From: Zymomonas mobilis subsp. mobilis ATCC 10988 | Lineage (GTDB): Bacteria > Pseudomonadota > Alphaproteobacteria > Sphingomonadales > Sphingomonadaceae | DNA length: 32,000 nt | Assembly: GCF_000175255.2 (NCBI RefSeq) | Contig: NC_017262.1 | Location: 30,001-62,000, forward strand | Reading direction: 5' to 3' | Part shown: positions 24,879 to 32,000 of the stretch, one piece after another | Layout: the number at the start of each line of letters is the position of its first letter | Numbering within the stretch: the stretch's first letter is position 1 | Program-made: the position numbers and the translations under genes | The notes under the pieces: generated by a model | The model's database searches: none | Seen by the model: only the letters and a program-made list of their open reading frames with translations | Told to the model about the DNA's origin: nothing

Positions 24879-27308
24879 TTACAAATTTACGTCGACTTTA
24901 AAATAATAGAATCCGCCGTTGATTCCTAATTGTGAAGTATCCATTACGTATTTTTCTGTCCCTAAATAACGATGTGCCAGAGGGACACGGCTAGGATAGG
25001 TATTAAACAGATTATTCGCACCGGCCGTCAAAGATAGCTTGGCATTAACCCGATAAGTTATATCCAAATTGGTTGTATATTTTACCCGATTATGAAAAGC
25101 GACGAAGTCGTAATTCGATAATATATCGCTATTAGCGGTGCCACCATAATAGGATAGCTGCGAGGTTGTATGTCCCCAGCGGATTTCATGTAAACCGACA
25201 ATCCATTTTTTATCGCCACTGGTAAACTGACCACCCCAGATAATTTTACTACGTGGATAAGCGGTAGTGATATAGGCAATGCTTTGCTTGGTCAGAAGAT
25301 CATTGCCATCAGCATCTTTTCCCTGATGCGTTAAAATAGTGCGATTGATATTGGCTGACACACTCCAGTCAATATGACCAATATCACCAAGATAGGTCGG
25401 GTAGGTGGCCGTAATATCAATACCTCTGGTGCGGGTATTGGCGACATTGGCAAACCAATGGGTCGAAATAGAGGCCGCCGTCCAGCTTCCTGCATCCATC
25501 GGCAAGGAAAACCCATTCATGGCAAGCGCACTTAAAGCCTGATTGCCATAGACATTGCCTCCGGGCAAAATTTGGCCACGCAGCTTAATTTGATAAAGGT
25601 CAGCCGTGATATGTAGCCTTTTGATCGGTTCAAAAGTAACACCGGCTGTAATATTGGTTGAATGTTCCGGCTTCAATTTTTTGGAACCATTAGCGAGTGC
25701 ACCGACTGAATTCGGACTGATAATCCCATCCGCAGAGGTAGGTGACACCGCAACCGCACTATAATTTTCTTGTGCCAAAGTCGGGGCATGAAAGGCGTTT
25801 GAAATGGTGCCTCTGAATCCTAACCATTTGAAAGGATCATAACGCAAAGCCACTTTTCCGGTTTTAGCGCTGCCAACATCGGAATAATGCTCGTAACGTC
25901 CTGCGACATCAATTTGTAACTGTTTGACCAAATGGGTCGCTACATCGAAATAACCGCCAAAGACATTCCGGCTGAATTTGCCTGCACTTGCCGCTGATAT
26001 CCCTGGTAAAGCCTCTGATCCACCACCATAAAGGGAATCCGCCGACCCGACCCCAATGGTATAGCTTTCATAGCGATGGGTTCCACCACCCGCGACATTA
26101 ATTTCATGAGGCCAGCCATCAATATGAAAGGCCTTGCTGAAATCAATCGAGTTACTCCATTGCTGGTTATTAAAACGCTGAACCCCCTTAAATGTCGTGG
26201 GCGTTCTTCCTGTATCGGCTTCTATCTGCCGGTTTGAAGAGTTTTTTAAACCGATCGTATTATAGTCACGCCCATAGACGCTAGAAACATCCCAATTCCA
26301 ACCTTTGATCGTGCCTTTCAGACCGCCCATAATTTCTCAATCATTTTCATTCATGGTTTCTATGGGTGAATATCCGTTAGGATAGATCGCCGAATAACCG
26401 GGATATCCGGCCAAACTACTGGCTAGGCGATAATTTTCAAAGGCTTCGGAATAGCGATGAGCATAAGTCGCTAAACCATAGGCTTCGATATTATCGGTAA
26501 TTTCGTAGCCACCTTTAATCGCAAAACTTTCCCGTGTCTGTTCGGGCTGCCCTAATAATTTGTTGTCTTTTTTACCCGTTCTTAAATCAGCAGCACTGCG
26601 ATAACTATGATTCTGACGCAGAAAATCACCACTGACATGAAGGTAACCGCGTGATCCCAGCTTGGTGCCGCCATCAAGATAAACACCCTGTTGAAAGCCA
26701 TCTTTGGCTGCGGTTACGCCTGTCACAGTTTGGGCATGAAAACCATGATCTTGTTTTTTCAGGATAATGTTCACAACGCCAGCCACTGCATCTGAGCCAT
26801 ATTGTGCAGAGGCACCATCTCGTAATACTTCGATATGATCGATCGCCGCCATTGGTATCATATCAATATCGACGGGGGTTGTGCCTTGTTGGGGGCCTGA
26901 ATCAGCATAAAGATTGGCGGTGGTATGGCGGCGTTTGCCATCAACCAGAACAAGGGTTTCGTTGGCGTTTAACCCTCTCAGGCTGATAGAATCCGTTAAA
27001 GCGCCGCTATCATATCCTCCATTGGGAACACTCAAAGAAGGCAGTAATTGCGTCAAGGCATTGCGTAAGCTGGGCATACCTGTCTGGGTAAGCTGCTTGG
27101 CTGAAATAATATCGATAGGCGATATACTCTCACGGGCTTTTTTGCCGGTTTCACGGGTGCCGGTAACGATGATAGCATCACCATTGTTATTAGACGCAGC
27201 ATCCGTTTGTTCAGCTGCAAAGCTCGCATATGGGTATTGAAAAATAGTCCATGAAAGCGAAAAGAAAAAGCTTCCTTTTTTAATAAAATTTTTCATACCC
27301 CACCCCAA
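24879..27308 (-). pseudogene. TonB-dependent outer membrane receptor interrupted by one in-frame TGA
   Basis: The upstream ORF (27308-26337) carries a signal peptide, a TonB-box-like DAIIVTG and the plug domain (LRGLNANETLVLVDGKR, IEVLRDGASAQYGSDAVAGVVNII). The downstream ORF (26330-24879) is the beta-barrel. The two are in the same frame, separated only by TGA (26339-26337) plus 2 codons: ...NEND*EIMGGLKG... Confidence 0.8.
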
Positions 27309-27571
27309 TTATTATAAAATTAATTCCTTATATTTTAATTTTTTCTTCCATTTATTTTGAAATTTTATTGTCTTAAAATAAAATATTTATAACAACATTT
27401 CTTATTTTACTAATAATTTGCATCTTTTCAATAGAAAGTAATGAATATCCCGTTTATTTTGAAATTTAAATGCTAAAATATTGATTTTTTAGGGTTTTTA
27501 TTTTTTAAAAATGATAATTTATAAAAAAATGAAAATTGGTCGGGTTGACTATAATCAGCAAAAATTAGGTG

Positions 27572-27595
27572 AAAATTTATTTTAAAATAAATTTT
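27572..27595. repeat. Perfect 24-bp A/T-only palindrome AAAATTTATTTTAAAATAAATTTT
   Basis: Read directly: the sequence equals its own reverse complement over all 24 positions. It lies in the 620-bp AT-rich gap between the receptor gene and the next CDS. Confidence 0.6.
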
Positions 27596-27929
27596 ATACA
27601 TCCCATAGACTTTAATGATTTTACTTTTATCCAAGCACAATGCTGCTTTTTTAAAGGGATATGCTGACCTGATAGGGTGGTTTTCTACATCGGACGATAA
27701 TGCAATTACCGTCCTTTTTCTTAATGGCAGCGGTTCAGATTCTGCCTTTTCTCTATTTTCAATCCCAAGGCTTTTGCTTTGGATTAAAAAATCCTTCATA
27801 GAAGGCGAGGGGACAAAAAAGCCGGATAGCCTTTTTTATAAAAACGCGTTTATTTTAATATCCAAGCCCCTGTAACGGCTTCATTATCAAAACTGACATA
27901 ACGCAGAATTTCGGGTTAATAAGGAAAAA

Positions 27930-28685
27930 TTGGTGCCTTCTTTTCGCATAAACAATCTTATCATTGATAGCTGGGCTTTCCTCAAACGAGAGATCAAGCT
28001 GATTACGCCGGTGGCGCTATCGACTATCGGCTTTGGCAATCTTCTGATTTTGTTGCTTTTTCCGACAACGCCCATGATGGAAGCCGGAAGTCAGCCGCGT
28101 CTTTTCCCGCTGCTGGTTTTACTGATCGGGGGCAGTTTCAATCTGATTGGTATTCTGGCTCTGTCGCGCTTAACCCTTATTGGGGGCGAAACCGTCAAAG
28201 ACGCTTTTAAAGTAGCGCTGAATCGTCTGATTTCGATTTTTGCCTTTTTGTTTACGATTTCGATTTTGTTATCGCTGACCCTTATTTTGGTTGGGACATT
28301 CCTGTTAAAATTATATGCAGCGCATCATTTTCCGGTTTCAACCTCAATGCTTTTGAGCTTGGGCGGCCTATGCGTCATGCTTTTTCTGGCACTTCAGGTC
28401 AAATTCTTTTTCTGGTATCCGATGATGGCTGAAAAAGATTCCGCTTTTCAGGCTATCAAACATAGTTTTTCTTTAACGCGCGGGCTTTTCTGGCCGTTGC
28501 TTTTAATTTTATTGCCTTTTTTAATCGGTGATTATGGTCTGTCGAGAATTTTAGGACTAGCCGCCTCAATGTCGATCTCGCTGAAAATGGCAGTGAGTAT
28601 TCTCGTAGTATTGCTGACGACCGCCATCAGCACAATGCAGGTTATTATTCAGGCAACATTATACAAAATTGCTAAACTAGAATGA
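27930..28685 (+). CDS. Multi-pass inner membrane protein, function unknown
   Basis: 251-aa ORF with at least 6 hydrophobic helices by eye. AAGGA (27921-27925) precedes the possible starts TTG 27930 and GTG 27933. No catalytic motif was recognised. Confidence 0.6.
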   Translation: MVPSFRINNLIIDSWAFLKREIKLITPVALSTIGFGNLLILLLFPTTPMMEAGSQPRLFPLLVLLIGGSFNLIGILALSRLTLIGGETVKDAFKVALNRLISIFAFLFTISILLSLTLILVGTFLLKLYAAHHFPVSTSMLLSLGGLCVMLFLALQVKFFFWYPMMAEKDSAFQAIKHSFSLTRGLFWPLLLILLPFLIGDYGLSRILGLAASMSISLKMAVSILVVLLTTAISTMQVIIQATLYKIAKLE

Positions 28686-28778: not shown

Positions 28779-28960
28779 CTAAGCTAAGTAATACTGCAAC
28801 AGCATGACGTAGGTTTTGATCAACTCGCCTTTTACGAAATGAACCACTACTGCTTTTTCGGTAATTACTATCGCCCCCAGGCGAAGGATAGAATGGCTGG
28901 GAAGGAAAAAAACGTCGAAACCCCTGGTGCCTGTTCTGCATGCCGAGCAATTTTCTGTAG
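28779..28960 (-). pseudogene. Possible C-terminal remnant of a tyrosine recombinase/integrase (frameshifted)
   Basis: One minus-strand frame reads RHQGFRRFF (resembling the HxxR box). An overlapping frame then reads ...AIVITEKAVVVHFVKGELIKTYVMLLQYYLA*, which has His-x9-Tyr spacing like the LGH...Y catalytic tail. No intact ORF exists, and the N-terminal 250+ codons are absent. Confidence 0.3.
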
Positions 28961-29514
28961 CACTTATTTGACAGTGATCATTTCTAGGAGTTGTGCATCG
29001 AGATAATTTAGCCTCCACTTAAGTATAGAAATAATATTAAAAAAAATTATCTTATATTATTTAAATTTTTTACCAAATTTATTTTAATTATACCGTATTC
29101 AATTAAAAAATAGACTCGACGTATTTTGTGATTTACTGTATAAATATACAATTTTACAGAATTTTAGAAAGAAGTTGAATTATGGTCTATAGGATTTCAG
29201 GAAATTGGTTAATAGGCGTTGCCTGTGATCTTCACACTGTAGAGAGCATCTATCTTGGGGTAGATGAATATGGACATAATAGGTTTGAAAACACAAGAAG
29301 TGTAATTGGTGAATTAGTTTATCAGCTCAAGTATCAGAACGACCAGACGACTATTCCCAAGATTATTGATCTTCTTCTCCAAAACATTAAAGGTATCGAA
29401 TCATTTGATGCTATCATCCCAGTTCCATCTTCTAAAATTCGAAGAATTCAACCTGTAGATGCAATATCTAAAGCCCTCGGTGATAAATGTAAAGTTCCTG
29501 TACTCATCAATTAC

Positions 29515-29969
29515 CTAGGTTTTGTTGACAAAGGAAGGTAACCACAATTTTACGGCCGCGAGATGAAGGAAGGCGAGAAAAGATTTTCTGGTTTTGTCAT
29601 AGCGTGTGGCAATGCGCCTGAACTGCTTTAGCTTATTAAACATCCGCTCAATACGATTACGATCTTTGTAGTGCTGGAGATTATAAGGAATAGGCTTTTT
29701 TCGATTGGAACGAGGCGGGATAACAGGAAGAATGCCTCGAAAAAGCAGTTTTTCGCGTAACCTATCGCTATCATATCCTTTATCAGCGAGAAAACAGTGG
29801 GGTGTTGTGACAGGGATATCTATCAAGCTATCAGCGCCAGAATAATCAGAGACCTCACCACCGGTTAGTGCGAAAGCTAGAGGGCGGCCTTGACCATCGG
29901 AACGGGCGTGGATCTTGCTCGTAAAGCCTCCGCGACTGCGACCAAAGCCTTCCTTATACGTCCCCCTTT
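29515..29969 (-). CDS. IS5-family transposase, orfB (DDE part, -1 frame relative to orfA)
   Basis: The -1 frame is open from 30006 and reads ...GFGRSRGGFTSKIHARSDGQGRPLAFALTGGEVSDYSGADSLI...FLADKGYDSDRLRE...YKDRNRIERMFNKLKQFRRIATRYDK. The likely slip site is the A4G5 run (minus strand CAAAAGGGGGA, 29961-29971). The TAG stop uses the flanking CTAG. Confidence 0.8.
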
Positions 29970-30365
29970 TGCGCCAGCCGCTTGGCTGTGGGCGCGAATA
30001 ATCGTACTATCTATCATATGTTGCCAGTCATCTGTCAGGCCAAGGTCAACGAGAGTTTCAAGAAGAGCGTCCCACACACCCTGTTCTGCCCACCTACGAA
30101 ACCGAACATAGACCGAATTCCATTTCCCATAACGTTCATGCATATCTCGCCACGGGCAGCCTGTTCGAAGCACATAAAGCATACCATTGAGAAATAACCG
30201 ATTACTTTTGGCGGGACGCGCGCAGCGGCCTCGTTCGCTTGGAAGAAGACCCTGTATTATCTCCCACTCCGCGTCCGTCAGATCTCCTCGCATCCTATCT
30301 ACCCTACAAAACTTGTTCTCAAGTTATCTCTAAAAATCTTAAATTATACCCTTTGTCAACAGAAC
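29519..30365 (-). mobile_element. IS5-family insertion sequence (IS427-like two-ORF type), 847 bp
   Basis: The terminal inverted repeats GTTTTGTTGACAAAGG (29519-29534) and CCTTTGTCAACAGAAC (30350-30365) match at 15 of 16 positions. They are flanked by direct CTAG repeats (29515-29518 and 30366-30369). The element carries two overlapping transposase ORFs. Confidence 0.9.
29877..30293 (-). CDS. IS5-family transposase, orfA (N-terminal part)
   Basis: 138 aa. LTDAEWEIIQGLLP ... NGMLYVLRTGCPWRDMHERYGKWNSVYVRFRRWAEQGVW is the characteristic IS4/IS5 N-terminal (DUF4096-type) region. Confidence 0.9.
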   Translation of the reverse strand: MRGDLTDAEWEIIQGLLPSERGRCARPAKSNRLFLNGMLYVLRTGCPWRDMHERYGKWNSVYVRFRRWAEQGVWDALLETLVDLGLTDDWQHMIDSTIIRAHSQAAGAKGGRIRKALVAVAEALRARSTPVPMVKAAL

Positions 30366-30604
30366 CTAGTAAAAAATGGTGATATCGAATTAAAAGGTAT
30401 TACAGATCCAGCAGATCGTGACAGAGCTTTATTTGATAGTATTGTCGTAGCAGGGACAACAGATCTTTCTGAAAAGAATGTTTTACTCGTGGATGATCTA
30501 TATAGATCAGGTGCAACCCTTGATGCATGCTGTCGCGCCCTCAAGAAAAGTACACAAGTAAAAAATATCTGTGTTTTGACAATGACAAAAACTAGGAAGA
30601 ACAG

Positions 30605-31165
30605 ATGACGGTTGTATTCTTATCTGGTTCACGTAGAATTAGCCGCTTAAATGATAAAATTCGCTTTCGTTTACAAAATATCATGAAACAAAATTTTCAG
30701 ATTTTTATTGGTGATGCTAATGGTGCAGATAAAGCTATGCAGTCATATCTCGCTGATCAGCACTACCCAAATGTATCTATATACTTTGTAGGGAGTATTT
30801 GTCGTAACAATATTGGTAATTGGAATACTAAACAAATAGCAGTAGATAAAAATCTGAAAGGAAGAGCATTCTATACCGAAAAAGACAAAGCAATGGCTGC
30901 GGAAGCTGACTTTGGCTTCGTTTTATGGGATGGAATAAGTGAAGGATCGATCAATAATATATTTGAGCTTTTGAATAGTCAAAAAAAAGCAGTAGTCTAT
31001 CTTTCTACACATAAAAAATTTTTTAATATCAAGACAGCTAATGATATTGAAAACCTAATAAACTGCACTGACCCTGAAGCATTATCCAAACTGCAAGGAT
31101 TACGAACTATTCGTAGGCAAATGGAGAAACATAATCTCATGGATCAAGGAAGTTTTCCGATTTAA
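30605..31165 (+). CDS. DprA/Smf-LOG (SLOG) superfamily Rossmann-like protein, ShosA-like partner of the PRTase
   Basis: 186-aa ORF. Its ATG overlaps the PRTase TGA (AGATGA), with AGGAAG 5 nt upstream. The pattern VVFLSGSR / IFIGDANGADKAMQ / VSIYFVG / FGFVLWDGISEGSINNIFELL / KAVVYL resembles the DprA-type GxxxGxD and SxG nucleotide-binding strands. Confidence 0.6.
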   Translation: MTVVFLSGSRRISRLNDKIRFRLQNIMKQNFQIFIGDANGADKAMQSYLADQHYPNVSIYFVGSICRNNIGNWNTKQIAVDKNLKGRAFYTEKDKAMAAEADFGFVLWDGISEGSINNIFELLNSQKKAVVYLSTHKKFFNIKTANDIENLINCTDPEALSKLQGLRTIRRQMEKHNLMDQGSFPI

Positions 31166-31304
31166 ATCTAACTTAGTACTTTGGAAAATAATTCCAAAAG
31201 TTCTTATCTAAAGTAGAAAGGCAGAGTTTAGCAGGTATAAATAGTTTTATATTATATCTGATAAAGGTTAATCGAATTTCCATGTTGAGAGCCTCAAGAA
31301 AACC

Positions 31305-31346
31305 GGCTTTTAAAAAAGAGGATATCGCCCCTTTAAAAGGGGCGAT
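31305..31346 (-). terminator. Rho-independent terminator downstream of queE
   Basis: ATCGCCCC (31324-31331) pairs with GGGGCGAT (31339-31346) across a 7-nt loop. The minus strand continues ATCCTCTTTTTTAAAA. Confidence 0.65.
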
Positions 31347-31352
31347 CATCCG

Positions 31353-32000
31353 CTATTTCACCCCGATCAATTTATGACTTTGAATAGATAACCGCCATAA
31401 AGGCCGCTGCATCACAAAGGCGATAGCCTTTTGGATATTTTCTTTTTGATATTCGTCATCCATTGGCTGGATCAGATAATGATCGAAATCCAGCTTTTCC
31501 AAAGCCTCAATATCAATGCCTTTTTGTGGCCATACCAGTTTTATTTCATTGCCTTTTTCAAGGATAATCTGGCTTCCTGCCTTGGGACTCATGCAAACCC
31601 AATCAATCGCAGACGGGACAGGCTGCGTTCCATTGGTCTCGATAGCGATTTCAAAAGCCTGATTTTTTAAAGCCAGCAGCAAAGCCTCATCTACTTGTAA
31701 TAATGGCTCACCGCCCGTCAAAACGACAAAAGGCCGAACATATTGATATCGGCTTTCAAGCGCCTCTTTCCACAATCGAATGGCCTGTTCTGCCAATTCT
31801 TCTGCGGTAAATCGTCCGCCATTTTCGCCATCAATACCGACAAAATCAGTATCACAAAAACGGCAAGTCGCCTGTTCACGGTCATCTTCGCGACCATTCC
31901 ACAGATTACAACCGGCAAAGCGAATAAAGACAGCCCGTCTTCCAGCTTGGATACCTTCACCCTGTAACGTCAGGAAACTTTCTTTAACGGCGTAATGACG
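31353..32000 (-). CDS. queE: 7-carboxy-7-deazaguanine synthase (radical SAM), 5' end beyond the window
   Basis: The minus-strand frame is open to the window edge: ...YAVKESFLTLQGEGIQAGRRAVFIRFAGCNLWNGREDDREQATCRFCDTDF...VVLTGGEPLLQ...IETNGT...HYLIQPMDD. The ORF-track start at 31796 is an internal TTG. Confidence 0.9.
   Translation of the reverse strand, partial: RHYAVKESFLTLQGEGIQAGRRAVFIRFAGCNLWNGREDDREQATCRFCDTDFVGIDGENGGRFTAEELAEQAIRLWKEALESRYQYVRPFVVLTGGEPLLQVDEALLLALKNQAFEIAIETNGTQPVPSAIDWVCMSPKAGSQIILEKGNEIKLVWPQKGIDIEALEKLDFDHYLIQPMDDEYQKENIQKAIAFVMQRPLWRLSIQSHKLIGVK

Follow-up and report, generated by a model that had tools for sequence, protein, structure and literature searches.

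Is the gene pair at positions 29182-31165 of a 32,000-nt stretch of the Zymomonas mobilis subsp. mobilis ATCC 10988 genome (NC_017262.1, positions 30,001 to 62,000; the whole stretch is called the window hereafter) a ShosTA-type toxin-antitoxin (TA) system, a distinct system, or a pair with no function in conflict? An earlier note, made from the sequence letters, described here a phosphoribosyltransferase (PRTase) gene interrupted by an insertion sequence (IS) and, behind it, a gene for a small DprA/SLOG-like protein, hereafter the partner. A PRTase toxin with a DprA-like antidote, as in PsyrTA and in ShosTA (the Escherichia coli APEC O1/P2-like prophage 'DprA + PRTase' system; PDB 8zva, 8zvb), is a recently validated anti-phage theme whose chemistry is unclear. 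Each protein of the pair studied here is little more than a catalytic or binding core. The pair is thus a simpler system in which to ask what the PRTase phosphoribosylates and how the SLOG protein neutralises or senses. By analogy, the locus looks like an IS-inactivated copy of a widespread, unnamed and compact PRTase + SLOG module, a distant cousin of ShosTA. We put the probability that it is a two-gene conflict module of the toxin/antidote type, with the PRTase as toxin and the SLOG protein as antidote, degenerate in this strain, at roughly 60%.

In this genome the PRTase gene is split by an IS5-family element, and the partner gene alone is intact. The 5′ part of the PRTase gene (codons 1-112; 29182..29518, plus strand) was taken from the list of open reading frames (ORFs) and its translation, and is identical to an intact allele found in a public contig (L087; Logan SRR10997048, 1452 bp). 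The Z. mobilis annotation has this part as a truncated 119-aa product (P0288, 'hypothetical protein [Zymomonas mobilis]'). The IS occupies 847 bp at 29519..30365 on the minus strand; it was delimited from the sequence and its Pfam matches, and it is missing from the empty-site allele of L087. A CTAG duplication borders it at 29515-29518 and 30366-30369. Its terminal inverted repeats are imperfect, GGTT(T/C)TGTTGACAAAGG, counting the flanking G/C of CTAG. On the minus strand, two transposase ORFs of 138 aa and 103 aa overlap; they match IS4/IS5-family transposase domains in Pfam, DUF4096 (E = 7e-29) and DDE_Tnp_1_2 (E = 6e-13). The window holds one copy of the element. The 3′ part of the PRTase gene, at 30370..30608 on the plus strand, was identified by reconstruction and by Pfam, TIGR00201 and PADLOC matches, and it carries the phosphoribosyl pyrophosphate (PRPP) loop VLLVDDLYRSGATL. 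Joining 29182-29518 to 30370-30608 gave a 191-aa ORF with both IPVPSS...IQPVDAISKALG and the PRPP loop.

Contig L087 is 99.6-99.8% identical to both flanks of the IS and carries the empty target site ...ATTACCTAGTAAAAA.... Its PRTase is identical to the reconstruction at 191 of 191 residues, and its partner protein is 99% identical. Because this contig has both the empty site and the identical protein, the reconstruction is independently proven. The split of the gene means that the presumed toxin would be dead and the module degenerate or inactivated in this strain; the Z. mobilis locus is a dead module with little physiological consequence.

The partner gene (186 aa; 30605..31165, plus strand) begins inside the end of the PRTase gene. 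The ATGA at 30605-30608 holds both the stop TGA of the PRTase (30606-30608) and the ATG of the partner (30605-30607). A Shine-Dalgarno-like motif, AGGAAG, was read from the sequence at 30594..30599 (plus strand), 5 nt before the partner start and within the PRTase coding region. The GC content is 37% for the PRTase gene and 33.5% for the partner gene; the window as a whole has 46% and the IS 48%. The earlier note had removed the IS to obtain the 191-aa protein, had pointed to the stop/start overlap with its AGGAAG, and had called both genes AT-rich; its reading frames, coordinates and composition all agree with what we found.

The first protein is a type I, ComF-like phosphoribosyltransferase. 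It matched the PADLOC profiles PsyrT (E = 4.4e-12), ShosT (3.8e-10) and the retron PRTase_III-A (1.9e-5). The PsyrT match covers model positions 537-686 of 689, and the ShosT match covers only 86-213 of 237. The match to PF00156 (1.4e-5) was slightly below threshold, and that to comF TIGR00201 (E = 4.8e-9) had 36.4 bits against a cutoff of 233.55. A phmmer search against PDB returned only marginal purine PRTase matches. For the structure we used an AlphaFold2 (AF2) model of a 74%-identical intact homologue of 190 aa, built from a 31-sequence alignment, which had a predicted local distance difference test score (pLDDT) of 91.4. Its top Foldseek match in PDB was Helicobacter pylori ComF 7p0h (1.4e-6), and there were 202 PDB PRTase matches at E <= 1e-3. 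Among the 50 PDB matches listed for the model, ShosT 8zvb had the highest query TM-score (TMq 0.59; E = 4.5e-5). The PRPP loop (VLLVDDLY) aligns with ...ILVIDDF... of ShosT. From this alignment, the DD of the window PRTase corresponds to D331/D332 of ShosT, whose mutation abolishes toxicity (PMC11961720). A ShosT-type hydrolase domain at the N-terminus is absent; the modelled homologue has only ~40 beta-rich residues before its first helix. No ComF-type cysteine cluster was visible in PRTase residues 1-60, and no helicase domain is present in the 191 aa.

The window partner had no match in Pfam, NCBIfam or PADLOC at E <= 1, and it was characterised by a family alignment, an AF2 model and Foldseek searches of PDB and BFVD. 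A word-indexed search gave 859 matches, nearly all of ~186 aa and unnamed, and an exhaustive search gave 2,227 representative clusters, formed at 50% identity, at E <= 1e-3. The family is large, tightly conserved and present in many phyla, and being invisible to Pfam, NCBIfam and PADLOC it is missed by current defence and TA annotators. Its motifs are FLSGSR, GDANGADKA, CRNNxGxW, KDKxMAxxAD and WDGxSxGS. The AF2 model of the partner (pLDDT 90.8; predicted TM-score, pTM, 0.86) consists of a Rossmannoid core (~residues 1-143) and a poorly conserved three-helix tail (residues 145-180). The motifs SGSR, GDANGAD and WDGxSxGS come after predicted strands 1, 2 and 5 of the core. Loops after beta-strands are the usual place of ligand binding in Rossmann-like folds. 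The core is basic, with an isoelectric point (pI) of 9.7.

The top PDB match of the partner in Foldseek was ShosA 8zva (E = 5.2e-4, probability 1.00, TMq 0.53, 148 columns). Further fold matches were SLOG (LSDAT) domains of TRPM, DprA of H. pylori, S. pneumoniae and R. palustris, YpsA (2nx2; E = 1.2e-2, target TM-score, TMt, 0.52) and ThsA. Among viral proteins in BFVD, the matches were named 'DprA-like', 'DUF2493' and 'YspA cpYpsA-related SLOG', with E-values down to 5.6e-7. Family profiles built from 30 and 149 sequences found nothing meaningful among PDB sequences. We also searched 149 diverse members of the family. Sub-threshold matches were found to DNA_processg_A in nine (best 1.1e-3), to YAcAr in six (best 4.1e-4), to PADLOC ShosA in eight (best 4e-5) and to PsyrA in one (8e-10), and none of the 149 matched LOG (PF03641). 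Membership in a curated SLOG family (PF02481, PF10686, PF06908, PF03641 and others) was rejected, as the window protein had no match and its relatives stayed below the gathering threshold. The partner is a SLOG-superfamily protein near the DprA and YspA clades, outside every curated family.

Two proteins with such folds could also be competence paralogues, related to ComFC and DprA and handling incoming single-stranded DNA (ssDNA). ComF is the best PDB fold match of the PRTase, homologues of the PRTase are named 'ComF family' or 'competence protein ComFC', the partner resembles DprA, and the pair is present in Neisseria. However, the comF model gives 36 bits where its cutoff asks for 234, and the cysteine cluster that would be expected at the N-terminus is not visible. 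PF02481 is missing from the partner, as are the SAM and C-terminal domains of DprA, and the module has the behaviour of an islet that moves and often decays. We regard a competence function as very improbable.

The pairing of the two families recurs elsewhere. In a survey of 80 loci that started from the partner, with one genome per species, the upstream PRTase was intact in 52, partial in 11 and missing in 16, and one locus ended with its contig. A second survey of 80 loci started from the PRTase, which was sought in metagenome contigs with family-specific peptide patterns; the partner lay directly downstream in 78, and the other two end at the contig edge. Among 86 partner-anchored loci, 69 had the two families adjacent; in both surveys the adjacent genes mostly had the same 4-bp overlap. 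Since the same adjacency recurs in both surveys, the arrangement is not due to chance. The distance matrices of the PRTases and the partners were correlated (Mantel r = 0.52, p <= 0.001, 100 pairs). Hosts of the pair are found in Alpha- and Gammaproteobacteria, Nitrospinota, Desulfobacterota, Verrucomicrobiota, Chloroflexota and Acidobacteriota, with one metagenome-assembled genome labelled as an archaeon. Identity of 45-60% across phyla suggests horizontal spread.

Losses within the pair are asymmetric. All of the 58 intact PRTases with readable downstream DNA were followed by an intact partner. Comparatively, 27 of 79 intact partners had no intact PRTase (16 had none and 11 a partial one). 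Such a pattern would be expected from a PRTase that does harm on its own and a partner that protects against it, and the IS-split PRTase beside an intact partner in the window fits it as well. Small overlapping genes, correlated distances, sites on plasmids or islets and the lack of any PRTase without its partner (0/58) are generic TA hallmarks, and the pair shows them all. The partner matched 101 plasmid records. Some neighbourhoods are rich in TA and defence genes, for example that of L006, with HEPN/MNT, HigB, Peptidase_M78-HTH and a ubiquitin-like/E2/E1 cluster. No recurrent third gene was found within 2 kb of the pair; the sole recurring neighbour was Fic in Thiothrix loci.

The same losses bear on the question of which protein is the toxin. 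Antidote-first is the commonest gene order in type II TA systems. If the roles were reversed, so that the SLOG protein inhibits growth and the PRTase counteracts it, the first gene of the pair would be the antidote and would match this order. In Bacillus subtilis, over-produced YpsA blocks cell division (PMC6459960), and YpsA is among the fold matches of the partner. However, it is the SLOG gene that persists alone or beside broken PRTase genes, and in this genome it is the SLOG gene that is intact and the PRTase gene that is disrupted. The fusions of the SLOG domain described below are to antitoxin domains (YhfG, a HigA-like helix-turn-helix, HTH) and not to toxin domains. Reversed roles are therefore quite improbable.

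Some further observations were made in the surveyed loci. In Nitrospinota contigs (L003-L005), a Band_7/SPFH gene (4684-5436 in L003) overlaps the PRTase start by 11 bp, which was not seen in other lineages. Two Neisseria gonorrhoeae records of 2.17 Mb in the plasmid collection (NZ_CP119142.1 and NZ_CP119140.1) are evidently chromosomes. Each contains a match to the partner, 55% identical, at a place where no gene is annotated. The genome of Neisseria polysaccharea (L069) has the full PRTase/partner pair.

We infer that the PRTase would act as the toxin and the SLOG protein as its antidote, in a role that could be defence or addiction. Going by the analogous ShosT, PsyrT/RqlH and PRTase effectors of type III-A retrons, the minimal ComF-type PRTase would act as the toxic effector. 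It would bind PRPP, divert phosphoribosyl groups and poison nucleotide or DNA metabolism. ShosT uses PRPP to damage nucleotide/DNA metabolism and its PRTase is the toxic component of ShosTA (PMC11961720, PMC12961424). The translationally coupled small SLOG protein would be the antidote, and probably a sensor too. It would bind a phosphoribosyl or nucleotide ligand or ssDNA and so keep the PRTase or its product harmless, and a cue from infection or plasmid loss would remove this control. Binding of a ligand or ssDNA is favoured by the predicted structure, because the modelled core is basic and invariant polar residues appear to follow its strands. Neutralisation might occur in three ways. The partner might inhibit the PRTase directly, and the overlapping genes and one natural fusion hint at a complex. 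It might sequester the product of the PRTase or cleave it as LOG proteins do. The third way would be an indirect route as in ShosTA, in which there is no binding between ShosT and ShosA, and ShosA acts via ssDNA and RecA.

It is also possible that the pair consists of a signal generator and a sensor, in a system of the 'nucleotide-centric conflict' type. The PRTase, not itself a toxin, would make an unusual phosphoribosylated nucleotide signal upon infection, and the SLOG protein would bind it and act through its C-terminal tail or, in other versions, through fused outputs (HTH, HsdM, Abi, HEPN). SLOG domains are known to sense ligands, and the fold matches of the partner include ThsA. Polar loop motifs are conserved after the strands of the predicted core, and the partner domain is fused to Abi_alpha, HEPN_AbiU2, HsdM and HTH domains. 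Against this, the 186-aa partner is compact and has no recognisable effector domain. A harmless generator would be expected to occur alone as often as its sensor, whereas 0 of 58 intact PRTases lacked a partner and 27 of 79 partners lacked an intact PRTase. Related PRTases are, moreover, the toxic component in ShosTA (PMC11961720, PMC12961424). A pure signalling pair thus seems unlikely, and the toxin/antidote reading is preferred.

The partner domain also takes the antidote position in other modules. Among the 149 members, the domain is fused to HTH domains, dnstrm_HI1420 in five, HTH_37 in three and HTH_3 in two, and to YhfG in one. In a plasmid version of the module, the PRTase is followed by a SLOG protein of 281-288 aa fused to the dnstrm_HI1420 HTH of a HigA-like 'addiction module antidote'. 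Such PRTase + SLOG-HTH loci are found on Xanthomonas pXAM48 (L168, 3414-4846), on Agrobacterium pAt1 (L169) and in ~15 further plasmid records. The module on pXAM48 adjoins a recombinase. For the plasmid SLOG-HTH proteins, current annotation names the HTH part only ('addiction module antidote protein'). In Thiothrix spp. (L028, 5001-6324; also L030, L031, L039 and L043), the partner domain has SGSI for SGSR and is fused to YhfG (PF10832, 2e-17), a Fic antitoxin. The fused gene directly precedes a gene for a protein with the Fic motif HPFREGNGR, and these loci have no PRTase. Similarly, another locus (L172) has a stand-alone partner gene and, ~300 bp downstream, a Fic-HTH gene.

Fusions and neighbours of other kinds were also found. 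In one locus (L149, 3540-6230), the partner domain is N-terminal to a methylase of type I restriction-modification (R-M; HsdM_N + N6_Mtase) and directly follows a PRTase. Stand-alone partner genes also occur in L047, with apparent hsdS and hsdM genes on either side, and in L048, behind an apparent hsdR gene; the hsd identities are as read from the translations. Other architectures of the SLOG domain are NADAR-SLOG, DUF4326-SLOG, SLOG-Abi_alpha, SLOG-HEPN_AbiU2 and PRTase-SLOG (P0178, P0183, P0163, P0211, P0254), the direct PRTase-SLOG fusion being one case (P0254). Two proteins (P0233, 700 aa; P0250, 438 aa) have large extensions on the SLOG domain with no Pfam match.

From these fusions, the SLOG domain can be argued to serve conflict systems as a portable part that regulates or handles ligands; that it is joined again and again to modules of antitoxins, Fic antitoxins, R-M and Abi suggests a regulatory part that can be reused. 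One may go further and suppose that the family is a portable sensor-antidote domain, a second 'promiscuous antitoxin' like Panacea/DUF4065 that gates unrelated toxins, or else a LOG-like hydrolase. As a portable domain it may gate the PRTase, Fic via YhfG, HEPN/AbiU2, Abi_alpha and possibly type I R-M, with a single nucleotide or ssDNA signal of infection as the common trigger. As a hydrolase it could reverse phosphoribosyl modifications or those of the AMP/ADP-ribose type. We hold this broader proposal as a tentative possibility.

A purely metabolic pair was considered as well. In a pathway of nucleotide or base salvage or of modified nucleotides, the PRTase would build a ribonucleotide, a LOG-like SLOG protein would cleave the N-glycosidic bond, and no conflict function would be involved. 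Both proteins are conserved as enzymes are, SLOG proteins of the LOG clade are phosphoribohydrolases (PMC9503650), weak Nuc_deoxyrib_tr matches occur in 3 of the 149 partner members, and many loci lie amid metabolic genes. However, the pair is patchy across phyla, with identities of 50-60%, sits here in an AT-rich islet and elsewhere on plasmids beside recombinases, and one of its members is often pseudogenised. Antitoxin, Abi and R-M domains are found fused to the partner, and LOG (PF03641) had no match among the 149 members. A metabolic pair without conflict function is thus improbable.

How close is the module to known systems? It resembles ShosTA in its two genes, which encode a PRPP-binding PRTase and a Rossmannoid (SLOG) protein like DprA. 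In fold, no PDB structure matched the partner better than ShosA, and among the matches listed for the PRTase the highest TMq belongs to ShosT; the acidic pair in the PRPP loop aligns with D331/D332 of ShosT. The differences are considerable. ShosT is a protein of 424 aa whose N-terminal residues 1-164 form a pyrophosphatase-like hydrolase domain, and ShosA has ~330-350 aa with an N-terminal SAM domain and an unstable C-terminal tail (PMC11961720). In contrast, the window proteins have 191 and 186 aa, each a single domain with a short tail. The partner has no SAM domain; its first beta-strand begins at residue 3, and its tail is the three-helix one. PF02481 is present in all of the 120 listed ShosA homologues, whereas the partner fails PF02481 as well as the PADLOC ShosA and PsyrA profiles. 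The gene order also differs. In the window the PRTase comes first and the SLOG gene follows with a 4-bp overlap; in P2_4C9 and phage Mana the DprA gene precedes the PRTase gene. The ShosTA-type pairs of these P2-like phages lie at 148-2473 of L175 (Peduovirus P2_4C9) and at 2360-3833 of L176 (Burkholderia phage Mana).

Membership in ShosTA was rejected, as the partner fails the ShosA and DprA profiles, the extra domains of ShosT and ShosA are absent and the gene order is reversed. The earlier note had left open a ShosTA-like system or a distinct, more compact PRTase-SLOG module. The second option is favoured by the small proteins and the failed profiles, and ShosTA proper is not. That note had also named computational findings that would speak against any such module: a first protein outside the type I PRTases, a second outside DprA/SLOG, or families that do not co-occur elsewhere. 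The first protein proved to be a type I PRTase with ComF as its top structural match, the second has a Rossmann fold whose closest PDB structures are ShosA and then the SLOG domains of TRPM, DprA and YpsA, and the two families are tightly adjacent in both surveys.

The closest sequence-level link found was to the pair of phage Mana, a compact DprA-like protein (282 aa) and a PRTase (225 aa). In hhalign, the PRTases aligned with E = 4.6e-5, at a probability of only 69%. The alignment of the partners (E = 4.3e-4, 131 columns) keeps all core motifs in register, at a probability of only 34%. The Mana pair differs in its opposite gene order, longer proteins and location in a phage. PsyrTA/RqlHI shares a DprA-like antitoxin, and PsyrT's C-terminal PRTase domain is the best PADLOC match of the window PRTase; however, PsyrT/RqlH is a large RecQ-like helicase-PRTase fusion (PMC4670107), and the window module has no helicase. 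Type III-A retrons use a PRTase of a related clade as effector (PADLOC PRTase_III-A, 1.9e-5), whereas the window module has no reverse transcriptase or non-coding RNA and its partner is a SLOG protein. Gene pairs of a YpsA-family SLOG protein and a PRTase were noted computationally by Burroughs and Aravind as a predicted nucleotide-centred conflict system (as cited in PMC6459960). In those pairs a SLOG protein with a GxD/E signature is coupled to a PRTase; the window partner has the GxD/E-like GDANGAD. For the 149 partner members 25 families were listed; YAcAr and DprA are among these, and PF06908, the family of YpsA proper, is not. In the literature searched, we found no paper that names or tests this compact PRTase + SLOG pair. 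A 2025 preprint states that, of the PRTases associated with defence, ShosT alone has a function that has been characterised.

Several results weigh against a toxin/antidote module related to ShosTA. The partner is not a detectable member of the ShosA/DprA family, and the analogy rests on fold and architecture. An hhalign comparison of the partner family with a 31-sequence ShosA alignment kept the motif register and was not significant (E = 0.21); comparisons with E. coli Smf and with the ShosA of P2 alone, the latter in the same register, were not significant either. The strong conservation of polar residues in the partner could reflect catalysis rather than regulation, and the SLOG fusions to Abi_alpha, HEPN_AbiU2, NADAR and DUF4326 suit a sensor or enzyme equally well. 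The peptide-pattern survey sampled only close relatives of the PRTase, and 12 loci were undecided at contig ends. Many loci lie amid ordinary metabolic genes, outside defence islands, and no relatives of the partner were found in IMG/VR viral contigs.

The module lies in an AT-rich islet of ~2.4 kb (28950..31350), delimited by composition, with ~33% GC when the IS is left out. Pfam matches of the flanking ORFs identified a membrane-protein gene (27930-28685) on one side and a radical-SAM gene (31353-31796, minus strand) on the other. No tRNA or credible Rfam family was found in or near the islet, and a scan for promoters and terminators did no better than shuffled sequences. Elsewhere in the window, a TonB-dependent receptor gene (24879-27308, minus strand) is apparently split by a single in-frame TGA. 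Its 323-aa N-terminal ORF (26337-27308) ends in ...PIETMNEND*, and a 483-aa barrel ORF (24879-26330) begins 6 nt further on in the same frame. Either the gene is a pseudogene or the TGA comes from a sequencing error. The intergenic stretch at 27200-27800, which separates the receptor gene from the genes that follow, is very AT-rich (GC 19-30%) and is presumably a promoter or regulatory region.

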